The notes under the pieces are model-generated. The model saw nothing but the letters and a program-made list of their open reading frames with translations. It was not told where the DNA came from and did not search any database. This document shows, one piece after another, positions 19,571-61,935 of a DNA stretch of 64,000 nucleotides. How positions within the stretch are numbered: the first letter of the stretch is position 1; every line of letters starts with the position of its first letter. The stretch spans positions 512,001 to 576,000 of the forward strand of contig CAVQMM010000001.1 in the NCBI GenBank assembly GCA_963713615.1. Reading direction: 5' to 3'. Position numbers and translations under genes: made by a program. The DNA is from an uncultured Chlamydiae bacterium (GTDB taxonomy: Bacteria > Chlamydiota > Chlamydiia > Chlamydiales > JAJFMA01).

Positions 19571-19780
19571 ATTCTATTGTTAGTAGTTAACTTTTACAGC
19601 TTGTTAATGTTTATGTCAATGGACTTTATATAGAATAAAAAAAACTTTCGAATTCGTAGGGCTTGCCTAGGCGCTGAGTGAGAAGGCGATTCTGGAGAGC
19701 TCAGGTGCGCCAGCCAACCTTTTGAGTTGCCTAGAAAGCCTTAAAGCATTGAAACATAAGCCCAAAGGGCTTGTTAGGTT

Positions 19781-19899
19781 GATGCCATGGCCTGTTGCAA
19801 TATCGACCCTTCGGGCCTGGGAAGGGAATGACTCTCTCTTCACCGGCATCCGATTTTCAGGAAATTGACTTCGGAGAATCGGACTTCTGCAATTACCTC
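19781..19899. repeat. Repeat arm, reverse complement of 41949-42067
   Basis: gatgccatggcctgttgcaatatcgacccttcgggcctggg...tgcaattacctc, near-identical. Confidence 0.9.
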
Positions 19900-26773: not shown

Positions 26774-26977
26774 AAAAGGTTGGTTGGCGCAATTTCCTAT
26801 GTAGCGCAGTCATTCCATGACTGCGGATGGACTTTCACCCACACAACCTCGTGAAAAACAATCATCTGTGGAGATGTGGACAACAACGCCTCATGTGATG
26901 CAAACCGAATCTGTTTCAACCGTCCTCGCAGTCATGGAATGACTGCCCCACATAGGAAATTGCGCCAACCAACTTTT
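26774..26977. repeat. Family A palindromic element with extended arms
   Basis: aaaaggttggttggcgcaatttcctatgtagcgcagtcattccatgactgcg / cgcagtcatggaatgactgccccacataggaaattgcgccaaccaactttt. Confidence 0.88.
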
Positions 26978-26978
26978 T

Positions 26979-27138
26979 GGCCTTATTCACCTTTGCGGTC
27001 AGTTTTCGGTGGACTGCAAAAGGATCGTCTGTCGCGTTTTGCTCCTCGGACATAGCTGGCGCTATGCCCTCGTCACAAACCACGACATCCGACCTTTTTC
27101 GTCCGACCGAAATTCTGACCGTAAAGGTGAACAAGGCC
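26979..27138. mobile_element. 160-bp MITE copy 2 (8-bp TSD aacttttt)
   Basis: One substitution versus copy 1; aacttttt at 26971-26978 and 27139-27146. Confidence 0.95.
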
Positions 27139-27344
27139 AACTTTTTGACATCTATTCGATGGTTTGTGGAAGCAAAAGCGCTCCTAATTCTTCACAAGAA
27201 CCAAAAATAAATGTACTTTATGGAAATTTCTGATATAGATAAGGAAAAATTTAATCTAGTGTTTAATTTATTCAGAGGAATGGATTAAACAGGCTCAATA
27301 GGGATGCTAGGGCATAGCTCGATCCTTAACTAAAGGAGATTACC

Positions 27345-30506: not shown

Positions 30507-33500
30507 ATGTGGATTGTTCAACTCGCTCTCAGGCGTCCCTATACTTTTGTTGTTCTCGCCTTACTTATTGCGCTCACTAGCTGTGTTTTTATGGTTGTAA
30601 CACCTAAAGACATTTTTCCAAATATCAATATTCCCATCGTCAGTGTGATTTGGTCGTACAATGGACTTCCTCCAGAAGAGTTTGCACAAAGGATCACAAC
30701 ATATAGTGAATATACCCTGTCCAACAACGTGAACGATATTGAAAGAATAGAATCTCAAACTTTTAATGGTGTCGGTTTGGTGCGTCTTTACTTTCATCCC
30801 AATGCCGATATTGCTATTGCCATGGCAGAAGCCACAGCAGCTTCGCAAGCTATTTTGAAACGCATGCCGCCAAACGTCCTTCCGCCGATCATTTTGCGTT
30901 ATTATGTGAATACTGTTCCGATTGTGCAAATGATTTTATCAGGCGAAACAGTTTCCCAATCTGAGCTTTATGACTATGGAAACTGGCGTATGCGGCAGTA
31001 TATTGCCACCATCCCCGGAGCCACCTTACCCACACCCTATGGTGGCGTAGTGCGCCAATTAATGGTCGATGTCGACTCCGTAGCTATGCAAACTCGGGGA
31101 TTATCTGCCCGCGATGTCAATAGCGCGTTGCTGAATCAAGTGGTGACTACGCCCCTAGGTGACTCACGCATCGGGAATTTTGATTATAACGTCAACATGA
31201 ACAATACACCGGTTGAGCCTGCCGCCTTTAATGATATTCCCATAGCGATGGTTGACGGGAAAATTATTTTTTTGAGAGATGTTGCGTTTGCCCACGATGG
31301 ATTTGCCCCGCAAACCAATATCGTGCGACGCAATGGGACGGGCTCTGTTTTAATGCAGGTCTTAAAAAATGGAGCTGCTTCAACTCTTGACATCGTCAAC
31401 CAAGTAAAAGAACTCATGCCCACCATACGCGCTGCGGCACCTAAAGGGATGAATATTGACTTGATTTTTGATCAGTCCATTTTTGTTAAAAAAGCTATCG
31501 AAGGTGTCGTTACAGAAGGGCTGTTAGCGGCATGTTTGACAGGGTGCCATGGTGTTGATCTTTTTAGGAAGTTGGCGTAGCACTTTAATGGTACTTATCT
31601 CCATTCCCTTATCGATCATGACTTCCATTATTTGTTTGAGTCTGATAGGAGAAACATTGAATATCATGACTTTAGGTGGACTCGCCTTAGCTATTGGGAT
31701 TTTGGTGGACGATGCTACCGTAGCCATTGAAAACATTCACCGCAATATCTCAGCAGGCAAACCCTTAGAACAAGCTATTTTGGATGGTTCTTATGAAGTG
31801 ACTATTCCTGCTTTTGTATCCACTTTATCGATCTGCATCGTATTTTTGCCTGTTGTCTTACTTGTGGGTCCGGCAAAATTCTTGTTTACGCCATTTGCAC
31901 TGTCGGTTGTTTTTGCAATTATTGCTTCCTACTGCCTTATCCCGTACGCTTGTCCCTGTCATGATCAAATTTATTCTGCCTCCGGAGATGTATTTGTATA
32001 CTGGAGGAGGTCCGCAAACGGCTTTAGACCGCTATCACGTCAAATTTTCCGAAAAATTCCATCGCTTTCGCAAATCCTATGGTTCTGCACTGCAGTGGTC
32101 ATTAGAAAATCGCATCATAGTACTTATCCTCTTTGGATTGATTTTTGCTAGCGCCTTGTTCCTATCCCCCTTTATTGGACAGGATTTCTTTCCCACCGTC
32201 GATGCAGGCCAGCTACGGCTGCATGTCAGAGCACCATCAGGCACAAGAATTGAAGTGACTGCTGAGATATTCAGTGAAGTGGAAAATGAAATTAAAAAAG
32301 TCATTCATCCCGATGATATTGAGATGTTGATAGATAATATTGGCATTAATCCAGTGCCTTATACCCTTGCTTTTGGGGATAGCGCTACTATCGGTGGCTA
32401 TGATGGTGAAATTTTGATCTCACTCAAAGCTGAAAGGAAATATTCAACCCAGCAATACATGACAATGTTACGGGAGCAGCTGAAACATAAATTTCCAAAT
32501 TTACTTTTCTTTTTCCAACCAGCCGATATCGTCAATCAAATTCTTAATATTGGCTTGCCAACGCCCAATCGATATTAAAGTTTCAGGATATGATCACGCG
32601 AACAATTTAAAGGTCGCACAAGAATTAGTCGAAGAGATCTCCCATGTTCCGGGTGCTGTCGATGCCCATATTCACCAAATTGTGGATCTTCCTGAATTGT
32701 TTCTTGAAGTGGATAGAATGCAAATTGCGCTTGCTGGGCTCAATCAATTAAACGTGACCGATGATGTTCTGATCAATTTCAGTGACAGCACAACAGTGAC
32801 TCCGAACTTTTGGCTAGATAGAAAATCCGGTGTCCCTTACCTGATTGCTGTACAAAATCCGAAATACCGCATTAACACTATAGAAGGGCTATTGCATATC
32901 CCTATCTCCAGCCCTGAGACTAAGCAATCACAACTTTTATGCGATCTATGCACAGCTAGAACGTCGTTCGACTGTAGGTGTAGCGAGCCATCTTAATATT
33001 CAACCTGTTTATGATATTTATGCTAATGTGCAAGGACGTGATTTAGGGGGTGTTGCTTCCGACATCCAAGACATGGTGGATAAATATAACCAAAAAATGG
33101 CTCCAGGCAATACCATTATCGTCAGCGGGGTAGTATCAAATATGAAGATCGCTTTTACGAAGCTGGCTATCGGTTTTATTTTTGCCATCTTGTTGGTATA
33201 TTTCATCATGGTGATCAACTTTCAATCCTGGCTGGATCCTTTTATCATCACCATGGCGATACCAGGAGCTATCTCAGGCATTATTTGGGCATTGTTTCTT
33301 ACCGGCACCACGTTTAACATCCCCTCTCTCATGGGATCTATCATGAGTGTAGGAATCGTTACGGCCAACAGTATTTTGCTGGTGACTTTTGCAAATTTTC
33401 AGTTAAGAGAAGGCAAAAACAGTATTCAGGCTATTCACGCCGCTGCCGAAACGCGACTAAGACCAATTTTAATGACAGCCTTGGCGATGATTGTCGGCAT

Positions 33501-33717
33501 GATTCCAATGGCATTGGCACTGGGTGAAGGGGGCGAGCAAAACGCTCCCTTAGGTAAAGCCGTTATTGGCGGGCTTGTTATAGCGACTTTAACCACATTA
33601 TTTTTTGTTCCTGTGATATTTTCTTACTTGCGGCATAAGGAAAATCCCTATCTGCATGCTAAACCACAGCCTTATGTGCCACCTGAACATCAAGCGATTA
33701 ACCAAGACGAAGAATGA
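30507..33717 (+). pseudogene. AcrB/CusA-family RND permease split by four frameshifts (decay or assembly error)
   Basis: Consecutive fragments carry GILVDDA, FFPTVDAG, RLRPILMT; apparent +1 insertions near 31542, 31934, 32565, 32952. Confidence 0.88.
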
Positions 33718-34897: not shown

Positions 34898-35194
34898 GGC
34901 TCTTGTGAAGTAACTCAAAGGTTGGCTGGCGCAATTTCCTATGTGGTGCAGTGTCATTCCATGACTGCGAGAACGGTTGAAACAGATGCCGTTTGTATCA
35001 CATGGGACGTTTGTTTTGCACGTCTCCACAATTGCAACGGATTGCTCGCAGTCATGGAATGCATGGAATGACTGCGCCACATAGGAAGCCTTGTTACTTT
35101 CAGATATTGGCGACGCAGTCGGTTGGGGCTCCAAAGCGCTTCGCGCTGCGTAACGATTGTGATTCCAAAGCGCCCCCAACTCTTCACAAGAACC
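34898..35194. repeat. Nested palindromic composite (families A and B)
   Basis: Outer ggctcttgtgaag / cttcacaagaacc; inner family A arms; tccaaagcgcttcgcgct...acgattgtga segment shared with 8750-8990. Confidence 0.75.
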
Positions 35195-40007: not shown

Positions 40008-40211
40008 CTATGACTTGTTTTTGGGGCCGCTTTTTTTACGCTTAGCTGGTGCGATTGGCACCAGCTCATAGCGAAAAGGAGGTCTATACTTTACGATCTT
40101 ACCATTTTTGCTGAACACGAGAGCCGTGTTGGTGCGGATGGCAGTTTCAAGGGCTCTTTGATAGCTTCTTTTATGCGCCTGTAAAACTGCTTCACATAGA
40201 TCATCGTTCAT
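40008..40211 (-). CDS. Small basic partner of zeta-like ATPase
   Basis: Overlaps the end of the ATPase gene; LVFSKNGKIV motif. Confidence 0.65.
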   Translation of the reverse strand: MNDDLCEAVLQAHKRSYQRALETAIRTNTALVFSKNGKIVKYRPPFRYELVPIAPAKRKKSGPKNKS

Positions 40212-40788
40212 TTGCAGCCTCTGTCAGCTTTTTCCATAACGTTTCGTTTAAAATATTTAATGGACTATTCCCATCCTTCTTCGCTATCAACGCCATCGAT
40301 TTCTGGCTAGAGTTGTCTATTATTAAAGCAGTATCGGCAAGAGGTAGGTAATGAGCCTGGAGGTGCCTGATGCCCGCATAATAACGTCTAATCACTACTT
40401 CGGTAGGCACATGATGCCCACCTTGTTTGACCCTTTGAGAAACCCTTTCGACGGCTTGCTGTGGACTATCAAGCCATAGAAAGGTTAAACTGATTTCATA
40501 ACCCATTGACTTTGCGTGTTGCAAGTGCTTTACGTAATTGACACCAGAGGCTGTTGTTTCGAAGGCAAAGCTTCTATGACCTTCTAAAAGTTCTTTAAGG
40601 CGCTTTACCATCAATTTGCTGGCGGCTAGGGAGACGCTTTCTGGATGGAGTGGTGCGAGGCCTTTGGCAATTTCGTCAGCGTTGATAAAGTCGTAAAGCG
40701 TCTGGTGTTGGGCCTTCATGAGCTCCAGACATATCGTCGTCTTGCCAGCGCCGTTTGGTCCGGCAATCATCAGTATTTTTTTTGACAT
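40201..40788 (-). CDS. Zeta-toxin-like P-loop ATPase (COG4185-like)
   Basis: IAGPNGAGKTT, FINADEIA, SFAFETT, RVKQGGH, IIDNS. Confidence 0.9.
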   Translation of the reverse strand: MSKKILMIAGPNGAGKTTICLELMKAQHQTLYDFINADEIAKGLAPLHPESVSLAASKLMVKRLKELLEGHRSFAFETTASGVNYVKHLQHAKSMGYEISLTFLWLDSPQQAVERVSQRVKQGGHHVPTEVVIRRYYAGIRHLQAHYLPLADTALIIDNSSQKSMALIAKKDGNSPLNILNETLWKKLTEAANER

Positions 40789-41566: not shown

Positions 41567-41802
41567 TCGACTGGTCAACGGTATCACTCAAAGAGCTCGC
41601 CGGATTTTTATCAGAAGAACTTAGGAAACATGGGATAGATATCATCCTTGTCGGTGGTGCCTGCGCTACCATTTACTCGGAAAACCGTTATCAATCTTAT
41701 GACCTTGACTACATCACATATGAGGATATGAAGAAGGTAAAAAGGGCTTTGATCGAGCTGGGGTTTTCAGAATCGTTTAGCAAGCTTCTATCACTGGAAT
41801 GA
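41563..41802 (+). pseudogene. Nucleotidyltransferase-like protein, truncated
   Basis: LVGGACATIYS...SYDLDY (GG + DxD); paralog at 50979 continues further. Confidence 0.7.
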
Positions 41803-41948
41803 TAAGCAGGGACTCGAACAGAGGCTTGCTTTCCCATAGGGTTTTGTTTTGGTGCACAATTGGTGCACTAAAAGAAAACCTATGCGAAGGCTAGGCCTTC
41901 ATTGGGTCTCTCAAAATGGGCAGGGACTTTTGTCCCTATTGGGCCATT

Positions 41949-42797
41949 GAGGTAATTGCAGAAGTCCGATTCTCCGAAGTCAATTTCCTGAAAATCGGAT
42001 GCCGGTGAAGAGAGAGTCATTCACTTCCCAGGCCCGAAGGGTCGATATTGCAACAGGCCATGGCATCGCCATGGTATATGCCAAAACGGTTTTAGCAGCC
42101 TGTAGGGCTGCCATAAAGCGCATGCATAAATGGTGTTTGTAAACTGGCGTCTTGTAGCAGTCCTTCAGACTGCGAAATCCCTTCCTGGCATATACCATGG
42201 CGATGCCACATAGGCCTCAACCTAAGCCTAACAATCGTATCTCGGCGCGCAGCGCTTTGGAGTGCGGTCGCTTGCGACCGCTTTGGGTTCCTTGCGACGG
42301 TCGTGTGCAACGGCATTACTATAATTCCCTAAGGGTAAAATAGTTAGTACATGCAGCCTTCGACGAATCCATACAATGCCGTTTAGCATTGCCGTCCCAA
42401 GGAACGAAAAGCGGTCGCAAGCGACCGCACTCCAAAGCGCTGCGCGCCGAGATACGATTGTGAAGTCCTAAGTCATTGAGATATAAGCTCAAAAGACCTG
42501 TTAGGTTGAGGCCTATGTGGCATCGCCATGGTATATGCCAAAACGGTTTTAGCAGCCTGTAGGGCTGCCATAAAGCGCATGCATAAATGGTGTTTGTAAA
42601 CTGGCGTCTTGTAGCAGTCCTTCAGACTGCGAAATCCCTTCCTGGCATATACCATGGCGATGCCATGGCCTGTTGCAATATCGACCCTTCGGGCCTGGGA
42701 AGGGAGAAAAGCCTGTCTTTCCAGACTGGATAGTGCCATACCACTTAAGCTCTCGAGAATCGATTCTCAAGGGCTCAAATAATTTTGCAATTACCTC
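41949..42797. mobile_element. 850-bp concentric palindromic composite
   Basis: Layers: gaggtaattgca / tgcaattacctc; 37-bp inverted arms; two 148-bp units (42061-42208, 42518-42665); cataggcctcaacctaa / ttaggttgaggcctatg; central 231-bp element. Confidence 0.88.
42231..42461. repeat. Family B REP-doublet-like element
   Basis: Perfect 54-bp arms containing ggagtgcggtcgcttgcgaccgcttt; relatives at 5832, 15276, 21145, 56562. Confidence 0.92.
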
Positions 42798-42840
42798 CAT
42801 TTGTCCTTTAGATATTGGCTAGTTTGACAGCGCGAGTTTG

Positions 42841-43000
42841 GGCCTTATTCACCTTTGCGGTCAGTTTTCGGTCGACTGCAAAAGGATCGTCTGTCGCGTT
42901 TTGCTCCTCGGACATAGCTGGCGCTATGCCCTCGTCACAAACCACGACATCCGACCTTTTTCGTCCGACCGAAATTCTGACCGTAAAGGTGAACAAGGCC
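42841..43000. mobile_element. 160-bp MITE copy 3 (8-bp TSD cgagtttg)
   Basis: Matches copy 1; cgagtttg at 42833-42840 and 43001-43008. Confidence 0.95.
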
Positions 43001-43191
43001 CGAGTTTGCTGCCATTTATTGCGGAGGACTGCACCAGGAGTGCACCATGATACAAAAATGGCAGCAGCGGCTCTTACCGCAACTGCCTATAAACCAAAGT
43101 CTCCAGTTACTGGGTACACTTCGAACTTTTGATTGGCTCGGTCTCTCTCAAGAATTTTCAACCCTCTCAAAATTAATAGCTTAAATTTCAC

Positions 43192-43221
43192 TTGAAAATA
43201 ATGTATCCCAAAAGATACAAT
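43192..43221 (+). promoter_or_regulatory. TA operon promoter with operator palindrome
   Basis: ttgaaa-18-tacaat overlapping tgtatc-N6-gataca. Confidence 0.7.
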
Positions 43222-43229
43222 AAGGTTAT

Positions 43230-43574
43230 ATGGAAGAAATCGAAATTGAACTCTACGAAACCGCTACCGGCAAGCGACCCTTTGAGATCTGGATTAAGGA
43301 GATCAAAGAGATCCATACCCGGGCCAAAATCCTGACCAGGCTTGATCGCTTAAAGCTTGGGAATTTTGGCGATTGCAAAACCTTACAAGAAGGAGTTTGC
43401 GAGCTTAGGATTCATTACGGTCCCGGGATTAGAATTTATTACGGGAAGATTGGGAATAAAGTCATCTTGCTTCTTTGCGGTGGCGATAAAGGCTCTCAAG
43501 ATAGGGACATCGTTAAAGCAAAGGAGTATTTGAAGGATTATCAATCAAGGGAGATAGGTCATGGCAAGAAGTAA
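43230..43574 (+). CDS. RelE/ParE-family addiction module killer toxin (HI1419-like)
   Basis: RLKLGNFGDCK..GVCELRIHYGPGIRIYY..LLLCGGDKGSQ. Confidence 0.93.
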   Translation: MEEIEIELYETATGKRPFEIWIKEIKEIHTRAKILTRLDRLKLGNFGDCKTLQEGVCELRIHYGPGIRIYYGKIGNKVILLLCGGDKGSQDRDIVKAKEYLKDYQSREIGHGKK

Positions 43575-46475: not shown

Positions 46476-46658
46476 AGCGTCTTCAGAGCTCCTGTTTATT
46501 TAAAAAGAATTGTGTTGCGCATTGTACTTCAGAACATCACTGGCAGCAGGATTCACTCTTCCCTTGCCAGATCAATACACTTAGGGATTCGCCGTCGCTT
46601 CTTTTGGGTAATGGAGCGCAGAAAAGACAAAGCTACGCTATTGTGGATTGGACTCATG

Positions 46659-46750
46659 ATACCTTCCTACGCTGGCATTACCCAGATCAGGTCTAAGGGA
46701 CTCTCTCAGCTAAATCCTTGAAAAACAAGCGATTTAGCACCCCTGGCGTT
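46659..46750 (-). ncRNA. TPP riboswitch (THI element)
   Basis: Minus strand aggggtgc-[P3 gctaaatc..gatttagc]-tgagagagtcccttagacctgatctgggtaatgccagcgtaggaag has all canonical motifs. Confidence 0.95.
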
Positions 46751-47009
46751 AACGAAATATTTACAGCTGCGATAAGCAGCTGAAAAGTCAGTGTAGTTCT
46801 GTATACCAATTTTTTGCAATAACAAATTGATATGTTGTAGCGTATTTTAGCGGCTGTGAAAACTGATTAGCCTGGTCTTTCGGAAAAAACACCTCTAGGT
46901 CTTATTTGCAAAAAGGACTCTCAAAAGAAAATATTTCGCGTCGCTGGCTACCATCTGTTCTCTTCGCCAGAAGAGCGAGTTGAATTAGTCATAGGAATAA
47001 AAAAAATAA

Positions 47010-51281: not shown

Positions 51282-51441
51282 GGATCTCTTCGAAAGTTCG
51301 AAATTGTCTGAAAAACGGCAATTGCTGAATTTGGTCTTTTCGAACTTAAAATTGGATGGAAAAAAGCTGTTTGTGACACTGCGAGAACCATTTCTGACCC
51401 TTACCGCAATGTCACATCAACCAGCGAATCTCCGGATGTAG
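51277..51441 (+). pseudogene. C-terminal remnant of a large serine recombinase
   Basis: LFESSKLSEKRQLLNLVFSNLKLDGKKL..LREPF; stop codon lies inside the tRNA 3' end. Confidence 0.7.
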
Positions 51442-51501
51442 GATTCGAACCTACGACCAATGGATTAACAGTCCACTGCTCTACCGCTGAGCTAATCCGG
51501 A
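51430..51501 (-). tRNA. tRNA-Asn (GTT)
   Basis: tccggattagctcagcggtagagcagtggactGTTaatccattggtcgtaggttcgaatcctacatccggag folds as a cloverleaf; CCA not encoded. Confidence 0.98.
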
Positions 51502-56336: not shown

Positions 56337-56672
56337 TTATACCATGCGCGCTTGGGTTTTATGTGAGGCGGTCATTCATGGGCGTGTGAAATCAACAGAA
56401 TTTGTTTCGACCGTCCTCGCAGTCATGGAATGCATAGTGTTGCACACATCTTTTTCCAGACAGCGGCACGTATCCGAAATAGCGTTTATCCGAATGAATG
56501 TAAGGATTTAAATGTTAGCTAAATAACATGAGTGAAGCTGTACGCATCGACCTTAAGCCCTCACAATCGTTACTCGGCGCGCAGCGCGAGTGCGGTCGCA
56601 AGCGACCGCATTCCAATGCGCTGCGCGCCGATTAACGCCATGCATGGATTGGCTGCGGCACATAGGAAATCG
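56337..56672. repeat. Mosaic of repeat families A, B and TTATACC
   Basis: ttataccatgcgcg, cgcagtcatggaatgcatagtgttgcacacatc, cacaatcgttactcggcgcgcagcgc. Confidence 0.75.
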
Positions 56673-61037: not shown

Positions 61038-61405
61038 AGGTCCTCTCGCCCGTGAATGGTTCCTAATACAACATCTTACGATTCGCTACGTGATCTTATG
61101 ATCCGGCTACATGCATGCAATGACTTACCGCTGAAAGCGCCCAAATAGAGGCGATGTCCTGCTTGTCATTGCGTTAGATGGCATACCCGCCGCGGCTTTT
61201 CTTCGCAACGTAAATGTTTACCTGGAGCGATGAATTATACCGCGTGCGGTTAGATTTGACGCATTCGACTAACGCGAAAACTCCCGCAGTTGTACGATCG
61301 CAATTGGGTTCATAGTTCTAATATTGAATTACTTGCAATCATTCAAATCCGGGGCTTTGTCGCATACGCATTAAGCTAAGAGAATTAAGAATTTTTACCA
61401 CCGGA

Positions 61406-61830
61406 GGTGCATAGAAGCTCGTGGGGCTTTTTTAGGATTTTCACCGCCGAGACACCGAGATAGGAAAGAGAGGAGAGAGGAAGAGGAAAGAATGTTCAGT
61501 TACTACAGACTCTGGACAAAATCCAGTCTAAGGGTTCTCGCAGGAATACGATTCTGTAGTGCCCTTAGACAGGACTTTGTCCAGAGTTGGTAGTAACTGA
61601 ACAGGTCCTCAAAAAAGTTAGATTGAGCACCTGTGCCATTTGTGTGTCTTTGGGCAAAATGCTGTCTAAGGGCTTTACCAAAACGCTAACCCCTCAAGAG
61701 GCCCTTGGGCAGAATTTTGCCCAAGGACACACAAACGGCACATTCTCTCCTAATCCTCTCTCTCCTATCTCGGTGTCTCGGCGCCTCGGCGGTAAAAATC
61801 CTAAAAAAGCCCCACGAGCTTCTATGCGCC
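61406..61830. repeat. 425-bp nested palindromic composite
   Basis: Outer ~45-bp arms; inner hairpin units 61493-61603 and 61632-61742. Confidence 0.88.
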
Positions 61831-61935
61831 TGGACTTGCGATTTTGTGAGGTTGTGCGTGGTCCAAATTCCAAATTTGTGATCAAGTGTGGTATAAACCT
61901 ATTTCATAATAGAGCACACAGTGAGGATGAAGTTA

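Follow-up and report, generated by a model that had tools for sequence, protein, structure and literature searches.

In the 64,000-nucleotide window analysed here, from the genome of an uncultured Chlamydiae bacterium (G000; 3.97 Mb in 3 contigs, 99% complete), positions 41949-42797 form an intergenic composite of four small repeats, one nested in another, that reads arm-core-Y-core-arm across the locus (Table 1). A weak OmcB-like match in this genome, below the family cut-off, fits an origin in Chlamydiae. The repeat cluster is flanked by an ORF for a zeta-toxin/AAA-like protein (40201-40788) and an ORF for a RelE/ParE-family toxin (43230-43574). Each module is present in ~90-480 copies per genome, and 7.1% of the bases in G000 lie within 16-mers that occur at least 10 times. 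The composite folds well beyond shuffled sequence (z -33; 0/20 shuffles reach the native value), and an Rfam scan of 41949-42797 matched no family.

An earlier note on this DNA had described a palindrome with flanks inverted around its centre and two 148-bp units in direct orientation, each bounded by 23-bp inverted ends. Both observations are borne out: the inverted arms measure 87, 40, 63 and 18 nt, and the two units are identical copies at a spacing of 457. Judged by eye, the other sites in the window to which the note had pointed (5.8, 8.7, 26.8, 34.9, 56.4 and 61.4 kb) contain repeat composites as well. Positions 26785-27202, 34917-35179 and 56412-56610 hold another REP-like doublet family (GCGCAGTCATTCC...), which elsewhere is cargo in shells of the A and Y types described below, and 61371-61877 is a large nested palindrome composed of further repeat families that have no relation to A and Y. 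The window also has an RND efflux permease gene that is apparently split into several ORFs (30507-33717), a TPP riboswitch upstream of a TenA-like gene (46647-46754) and a tRNA (51430-51501).

Table 1. Features of the composite and related loci (window positions unless a contig is given).
Feature	Position	Strand	Remarks
G array, left part	41917..41948		degenerate 9-bp-period GGAC/GTCC array, target of shell A; terminal CATT 41945-41948
MITE shell A with all cargo	41949..42797	+	17-bp TIRs 41949-41965 and 42781-42797, 15/17 match
Left outer arm B of the long hairpin repeat B-core-B'	42027..42060	+	relatives in the array beside Y1 gene L003
Core copy 1	42061..42208	+	148 bp; 23-bp inverted ends contain the 11-nt Y target; normal orientation
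MITE Y	42209..42517	+	309 bp; 17-bp TIRs 42209-42225 and 42501-42517; ends match IS4-family elements
REP doublet e-m-e' inside Y	42231..42461		arms targeted elsewhere by IS66, IS1634 and a second Y-like MITE
Core copy 2	42518..42665	+	identical direct duplicate of core 1; normal orientation
Right outer arm B'	42666..42699	+	elsewhere target of an IS110, 9/9 copies
Right CATT copy and continuing G array	42798..42810		second half of the 4-bp target duplication of shell A
MITE F, neighbour outside the composite	42841..43000		160 bp; 8-bp duplication 42833-42840 / 43001-43008
Truncated relative: left shell A and B arm	19781..19899	-	runs into degenerate Y-like end
Shell A tandem arrays	G000:C1:476526-478848, 1173286-1175500, 2273505-2277245, 2600817-2603020

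The stretch singled out in the earlier note coincides exactly with a single element bounded by 17-bp terminal inverted repeats (TIRs), shell A, here with a CATT target duplication and a right part that is ~40 bp shorter than in the usual 431-433-bp form. G000 has 343 shell A ends and 111 end pairs, and 45 of these pairs have an exact 4-bp duplication. Among the 104 pairs spanning up to 3.3 kb, 44 have such a duplication (permutation mean 6.4, maximum 15 in 2000) and 60 do not. GGAC or GTCC lies within 12 nt of 225/287 ends, mostly in two fixed registers, against a background of 4.6%, which argues that shell A targets the 9-bp-period GGAC arrays, of which C1 has 115 with at least three units, compared with 0 in 1 Mb of shuffled sequence. 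Mirror-image G flanks are found in 31/40 shell A copies that lack a duplication and in 7/38 that have one (p 1.5e-7, which is overstated because array members are not independent; 26 of the 104 pairs were unclassified and left out). Shell A also forms four tandem arrays with a period of 455-474 bp and up to nine copies, and one junction of this type is present in a public sequencing run.

Shell A has the hallmarks of a MITE, namely TIRs, a target duplication of fixed length (4 bp) and an autonomous element with the same ends, the last in other genomes only. This element (L173), one of at least 80 loci from a genome-wide scan for the A end motif, is 1510 bp long, has A-like ends and a 4-bp duplication, and codes for a transposase with DUF772 and DDE_Tnp_1 domains that is nearest to the IS1182 and IS5 models (NF033551 and NF033581, both matched below cut-off). 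Matches to the A end motif occurred in 53 of the 301 genomes searched from the phylum, in many cases as single matches inside genes; relatives of the L173 protein are present in 24 of the 301 and absent from G000, and 14 of 20 inspected loci of such relatives have similar ends, with 11-14 of 17 positions alike. From its ends and duplications, shell A is likely a non-autonomous DDE transposon. In another genome, an autonomous A-type element (L239, G281:C1) is inserted in a CCTTTCAGG hairpin, so A-type elements can target hairpin repeats too.

Inside shell A lies a long hairpin repeat, in which the outer arms B and B' enclose the core. The earlier note had taken the 148-bp unit for a separate layer and the related arm at 19747-19899 for one lacking this unit. 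We found instead that 88/90 cores are flanked on both sides by a B arm or Y, and, hence, that arms and core form one unit, and that 19781-19899 is not an empty site but a shell truncated into a degenerate Y-like end. We found no clean empty B-B' or A1-A2 sites in G000, and for these flanking counts, together with the finding that the sole near-empty B-B' is a Y remnant, we rejected the core as an independent MITE. By a strict test, 233 of the 299 B arms have an A flank, 13 lie in the array beside the Y1 gene L003, 10 are cut by IS110, and 43 are others, many of which resemble diverged A flanks; we infer that A carried the hairpin through the genome. A GAGG-ended element with an apparent 4-bp duplication and a reverse-transcriptase-like fragment occupies the inner hairpin of the core at G000:C1:1137410-1138825.

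Six or seven diverged B-core-B' units are located directly behind the Y1 transposase gene L003 (G000:C1:3243412). The L003 protein has the motifs DHVH, WQ and Y---Q--HH and scores as IS200-like; the last motif fits the signature of subclass 1.2 of PMC6006769, in Table 1 of which the subclass 1.2 Y1 genes are entered without REPs. B-core-B' is REPIN-like in layout; as REPINs are defined by a Group 2/3 RAYT gene, which it lacks, we do not class it as one. L003 and a second gene, L002 (G000:C1:3873041), are both Y1 genes of the subclass 1.2 type, and each has a separate family of long hairpin repeats on its flanks.

In G000, 81/82 copies of MITE Y are in the 11-nt hairpin of the B arm, and 71/82 have an exact 11-bp duplication, with five different duplication words; variant 11-mers are faithfully duplicated at the insertions. 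The genome has 633 consensus 11-mers, 370 of them in B-arm context. The 81 arm-site copies comprise 72 simple insertions (69 with an exact 11-bp duplication), four copies between two cores, and five that replace the core. The ends of Y fit the pattern of the IS231 subgroup (CAT...AA..TAA), and its duplication the length of 10-12 bp, as listed in Table 1 of PMC2266710; they also resemble those of E. coli IS186, where the 10-bp duplication sits in a small G+C-rich palindrome. Y thus shares ends, duplication length and a short G+C-rich palindromic target with these IS4-family elements; it differs from them in that it has no ORF, carries the REP doublet e-m-e', and has no partner transposase that we could find in G000. 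The Y end motif was matched in 25 of the 301 phylum genomes, where two loci, both in other genomes, lie beside an IS4-family transposase gene (L060 and L075); both proteins score above the NF033592 cut-off and have the YREK motif, with L060 lying in an element without an exact 11-bp duplication and L075 seen with one end only. Having 5'-CAT ends with AA..TAA, a duplication of matching length and an IS4 transposase between similar ends elsewhere, Y is likely an IS4-family MITE and, as such, a non-autonomous DDE transposon, its mover being assigned from the ends.

For both A and Y, an end-pair scan, protein queries, a family search and our own profiles run over six frames found no partner transposase in G000 (best six-frame profile E 0.064; the family search gave weak matches to other elements only). 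Accordingly, A and Y look orphaned, despite the near-identical Y copies. Divergence is 0.3% among Y copies (43 copies) and 7% among shells (68 shells), as the nesting order predicts. One shell haplotype (10/68 aligned shells) occurs with no Y (3), with Y on the left in two orientations (4 and 2), and with Y on the right (1). These several Y states of one haplotype, together with the faithful duplication of variant 11-mers, indicate that Y inserted repeatedly. Shell haplotypes are mosaic, and gene conversion between copies could account for part of the scatter in Y states. We rejected insertion of Y into a folded single strand, which predicts Y pairs of opposite orientation, because the two copies in the sole complete double-Y locus have the same orientation.

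The REP doublet occurs mostly with Y: 82/88 m linkers adjoin a Y end on one or both sides. The gene L006, which codes for a REP-associated tyrosine transposase (RAYT) scoring above the NF047646 cut-off, has 3+3 e units around it; e-m-e', being an inverted REP doublet whose relatives flank such a gene, is a REPIN. The search for Y1/RAYT genes flanked by these motifs that the earlier note had proposed thus gave two such genes, L003 with relatives of B-core-B' and L006 with relatives of e. The e arms are themselves a target. An IS66 lies in the e hairpin in 17/18 copies, at one position, in both arms and orientations, and with an 8-bp duplication; each of the 14 IS1634 ends located adjoins e; and e also hosts a second Y-like MITE, which has duplications of 10 bp. 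Two long forms (3055 bp and 2192 bp) were considered as autonomous parents of A or Y and rejected, being IS66 and IS1634 insertions into an e arm. The 18th IS66 copy (G000:C1 3362125) is in a hairpin family also present at 61.5 kb in the window. The earlier note was right in inferring that repeat families here insert into each other and give rise to composites.

Who builds the layers is a separate matter. The earlier note had named RAYTs as the agents that spread REP/REPIN units, and Y1/RAYT (HUH) transposases could in principle assemble the layers and, by cutting and rejoining single strands, invert a core. Two of the six Y1 (HUH) genes in G000 do have relatives of the two hairpin repeats beside them, insertion of REPINs into or beside other REPINs has been reported (PMC3116915), and a few cores (3/90) are truly reversed. 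However, the nesting junctions carry 4-bp and 11-bp duplications and DDE-family TIRs, both cores of 41949-42797 are normally oriented, and only 13/299 B arms lie in the Y1-gene array, compared with 233 in A shells. A part for Y1 genes beside relatives of two layers therefore stands, while RAYTs as the main builders are unlikely, the shells that do the nesting having DDE-type TIRs and duplications.

The cores are also what was thought to be flipped. Relative to the shell, 70/90 cores in G000 clearly lie one way, and at 41949-42797 both cores have this usual orientation; the mirror symmetry is broken because the core is duplicated, not because one copy is turned round. Core-Y-core is found at four loci, the reciprocal core-lost form arm-Y-arm at five, and a double-Y form at one. 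The doubled and lost forms would both follow from the two arms offering the same Y site. At 42209-42517, Y is flanked by mirror-image 11-mers and lacks a direct duplication, as expected if its left side derives from an insertion in the right arm and its right side from one in the left arm. At two of the other doubled loci, the two cores have private variants in common, arguing that the duplication was local, and the 11-mers around Y match, which a simple left-by-right crossover does not predict; here, the local duplication probably occurred by template switching. The doubled core is thus likely the product of recombination or slippage at two equivalent arms. The shell A copies without duplication, which mostly have mirror-image flanks, and the tandem A arrays follow the same logic one level out.

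Because all modules are high-copy, the doubled core might instead be an assembly error in a repeat-rich region. In contigs of six public runs, the modules are present at high depth and the junction types recur, among them those of left-arm Y, IS66 and IS1634; none of these contigs spans 41949-42797, and its unique flanks are barely covered. Core-Y and Y-core junctions are present in contigs of several of the runs, although single-core forms also give these junctions. Against an assembly error, the doubled form is found at four loci with different flanks, two of which have private variants in both cores, and the copy at 41949-42797 has a private base at 42023, a private deletion and an intact A target duplication. 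We therefore regard misassembly as very improbable.

We also weighed whether the host keeps the composite as a functional switch, invertible or regulatory. Its nested inverted repeats could allow inversion, the e arms contain two terminator-like hairpins, and pieces of the composite are present in contigs of one RNA run, which may contain DNA. By contrast, the promoter-like sites in 41600-43300 number two, both outside the element, where 2.3 are expected; no recombinase match was obtained among the neighbours tested; and reversed cores are rare. A retained switch is accordingly extremely doubtful, and a host function is unnecessary to explain the composite.

Altogether, we favor, at a probability of about 0.8, a nest of four repeats in which A sits in a GGAC array, the long hairpin repeat in A, Y in an arm of this repeat, and the second hairpin pair in Y, with A and Y likely being DDE MITEs and the core likely doubled by recombination or slippage. 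According to this model, shell A would once have captured the hairpin repeat and then been copied by an IS5/IS1182-like transposase, spreading a landing site for Y. Y, copied by an IS4-like transposase, would have inserted repeatedly in the left or right arm and in either orientation, spreading in turn a landing site for IS66 and IS1634. Core-Y-core and the reciprocal arm-Y-arm could have arisen by exchange between left and right forms, by reinsertion of a 457-bp circle of Y plus core, or by local template switching.

Next to the composite lies MITE F, which in G000 has 122 end pairs, 104 of them with an 8-bp duplication. A long relative with the same ends (L250; G000:C1:1035800-1037682) has an ORF that matches DUF6399 only. 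In the model of its protein (pLDDT 86), a helical insertion accompanies an RNase H-like core in which D166, D221 and E473 are invariant, and the best fold matches are the Hermes (hAT) and ISCth4 transposases (E ~5e-4, but TM ~0.3). The protein has 1563 homologues; among those listed, most are on 2-kb contigs, and one is named a transposase. DUF6399 was found in no paper of the literature searched, which excluded subscription journals. Proteins with DUF6399 are likely DDE transposases.

A DNA search of 40 relatives with the whole locus gave only short partial matches, in four of them. Shells of both kinds recur in relatives: in a genome of another family (G251), A-type shells lie in GGAC arrays with different hairpin cargo, which is also found beside that genome's own Y1 gene (2/8 cargos tested matched one of 18 Y1 loci), and Y-type shells in relatives, judged by eye, carry and target other repeats.

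Each ingredient of the composite is known from other bacteria as a MITE, a REPIN or a REP-targeting IS; what is unusual is the number of layers. In ISPsy8, ISPa11, ISPpu9/10, ISRm19 and ISRm22, all or nearly all copies are reported at one position of a palindromic repeat, and direct repeats that do not match were attributed to recombination among the copies (Tobes and Pareja 2006; PMC1525189); MITEPpu9 is a further case (PMC12288879). The elements described here likewise insert at a single position in a palindromic repeat, and their non-matching repeats are likewise read as recombination; here, however, a single genome has at least five types of repeat-targeting element, an IS66 among them, and two are MITEs that carry the next target. 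REPINs and BIMEs are inverted hairpin doublets with arrays beside a Y1 gene and with clusters that arise when units insert into those already present (Bertels and Rainey 2011, PMC3116915; bioRxiv 10.1101/2021.07.10.451892), whereas both doublets here are mostly inside DDE-type shells rather than free, and the gene of the long hairpin has a subclass 1.2 signature. Bacterial MITEs such as Correia, RUP, ERIC and Nezha are described as intergenic elements with TIRs, target duplications, strong folding and no transposase (PMC3184786); the cargo here, by contrast, is other mobile repeats, up to whole IS elements, and the terms "nested" and "within a MITE" have 0 occurrences in that review. Repeats within other palindromes are known (PMC3733652). 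In Drosophila, site preference is reported to lead to double insertions, from which recombination expands arrays (McGurk and Barbash 2018; PMC5932611); here, a palindrome supplies both sites, one in each arm, so that the intervening core is doubled or lost. In the literature searched, from which subscription journals and supplements were excluded, we found no account of MITEs whose REP doublets are targets of other elements, of an IS66 that targets REPs, or of repeats of this sort in Chlamydiae.

These findings from one genome, with target duplications that can be counted, demonstrate how mobile repeats without coding capacity can create niches for each other. The abundance of a hairpin repeat can stem from a DDE carrier instead of the repeat's own Y1 enzyme, a point that matters for the interpretation of REP and REPIN counts. 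The IS4-type, IS66, IS1634 and IS110 elements, each with a near-exclusive short target, are compact test cases for target choice, and two equivalent arms that yield doubled or lost cores account for "broken palindromes" without inversion machinery. More tentatively, and with somewhat less than even confidence, we speculate that a recurring relay operates in environmental chlamydiae, in which DDE MITE shells capture Y1 hairpin repeats, take over their spread and seed harmless landing sites (from A to Y to IS66 and IS1634, and also for IS110). Such a relay, which would include an IS66 that targets REPs and a Y1 gene of subclass 1.2 with a repeat family of its own, may allow an intracellular bacterium to tolerate ~7% repeat DNA with its genes spared.
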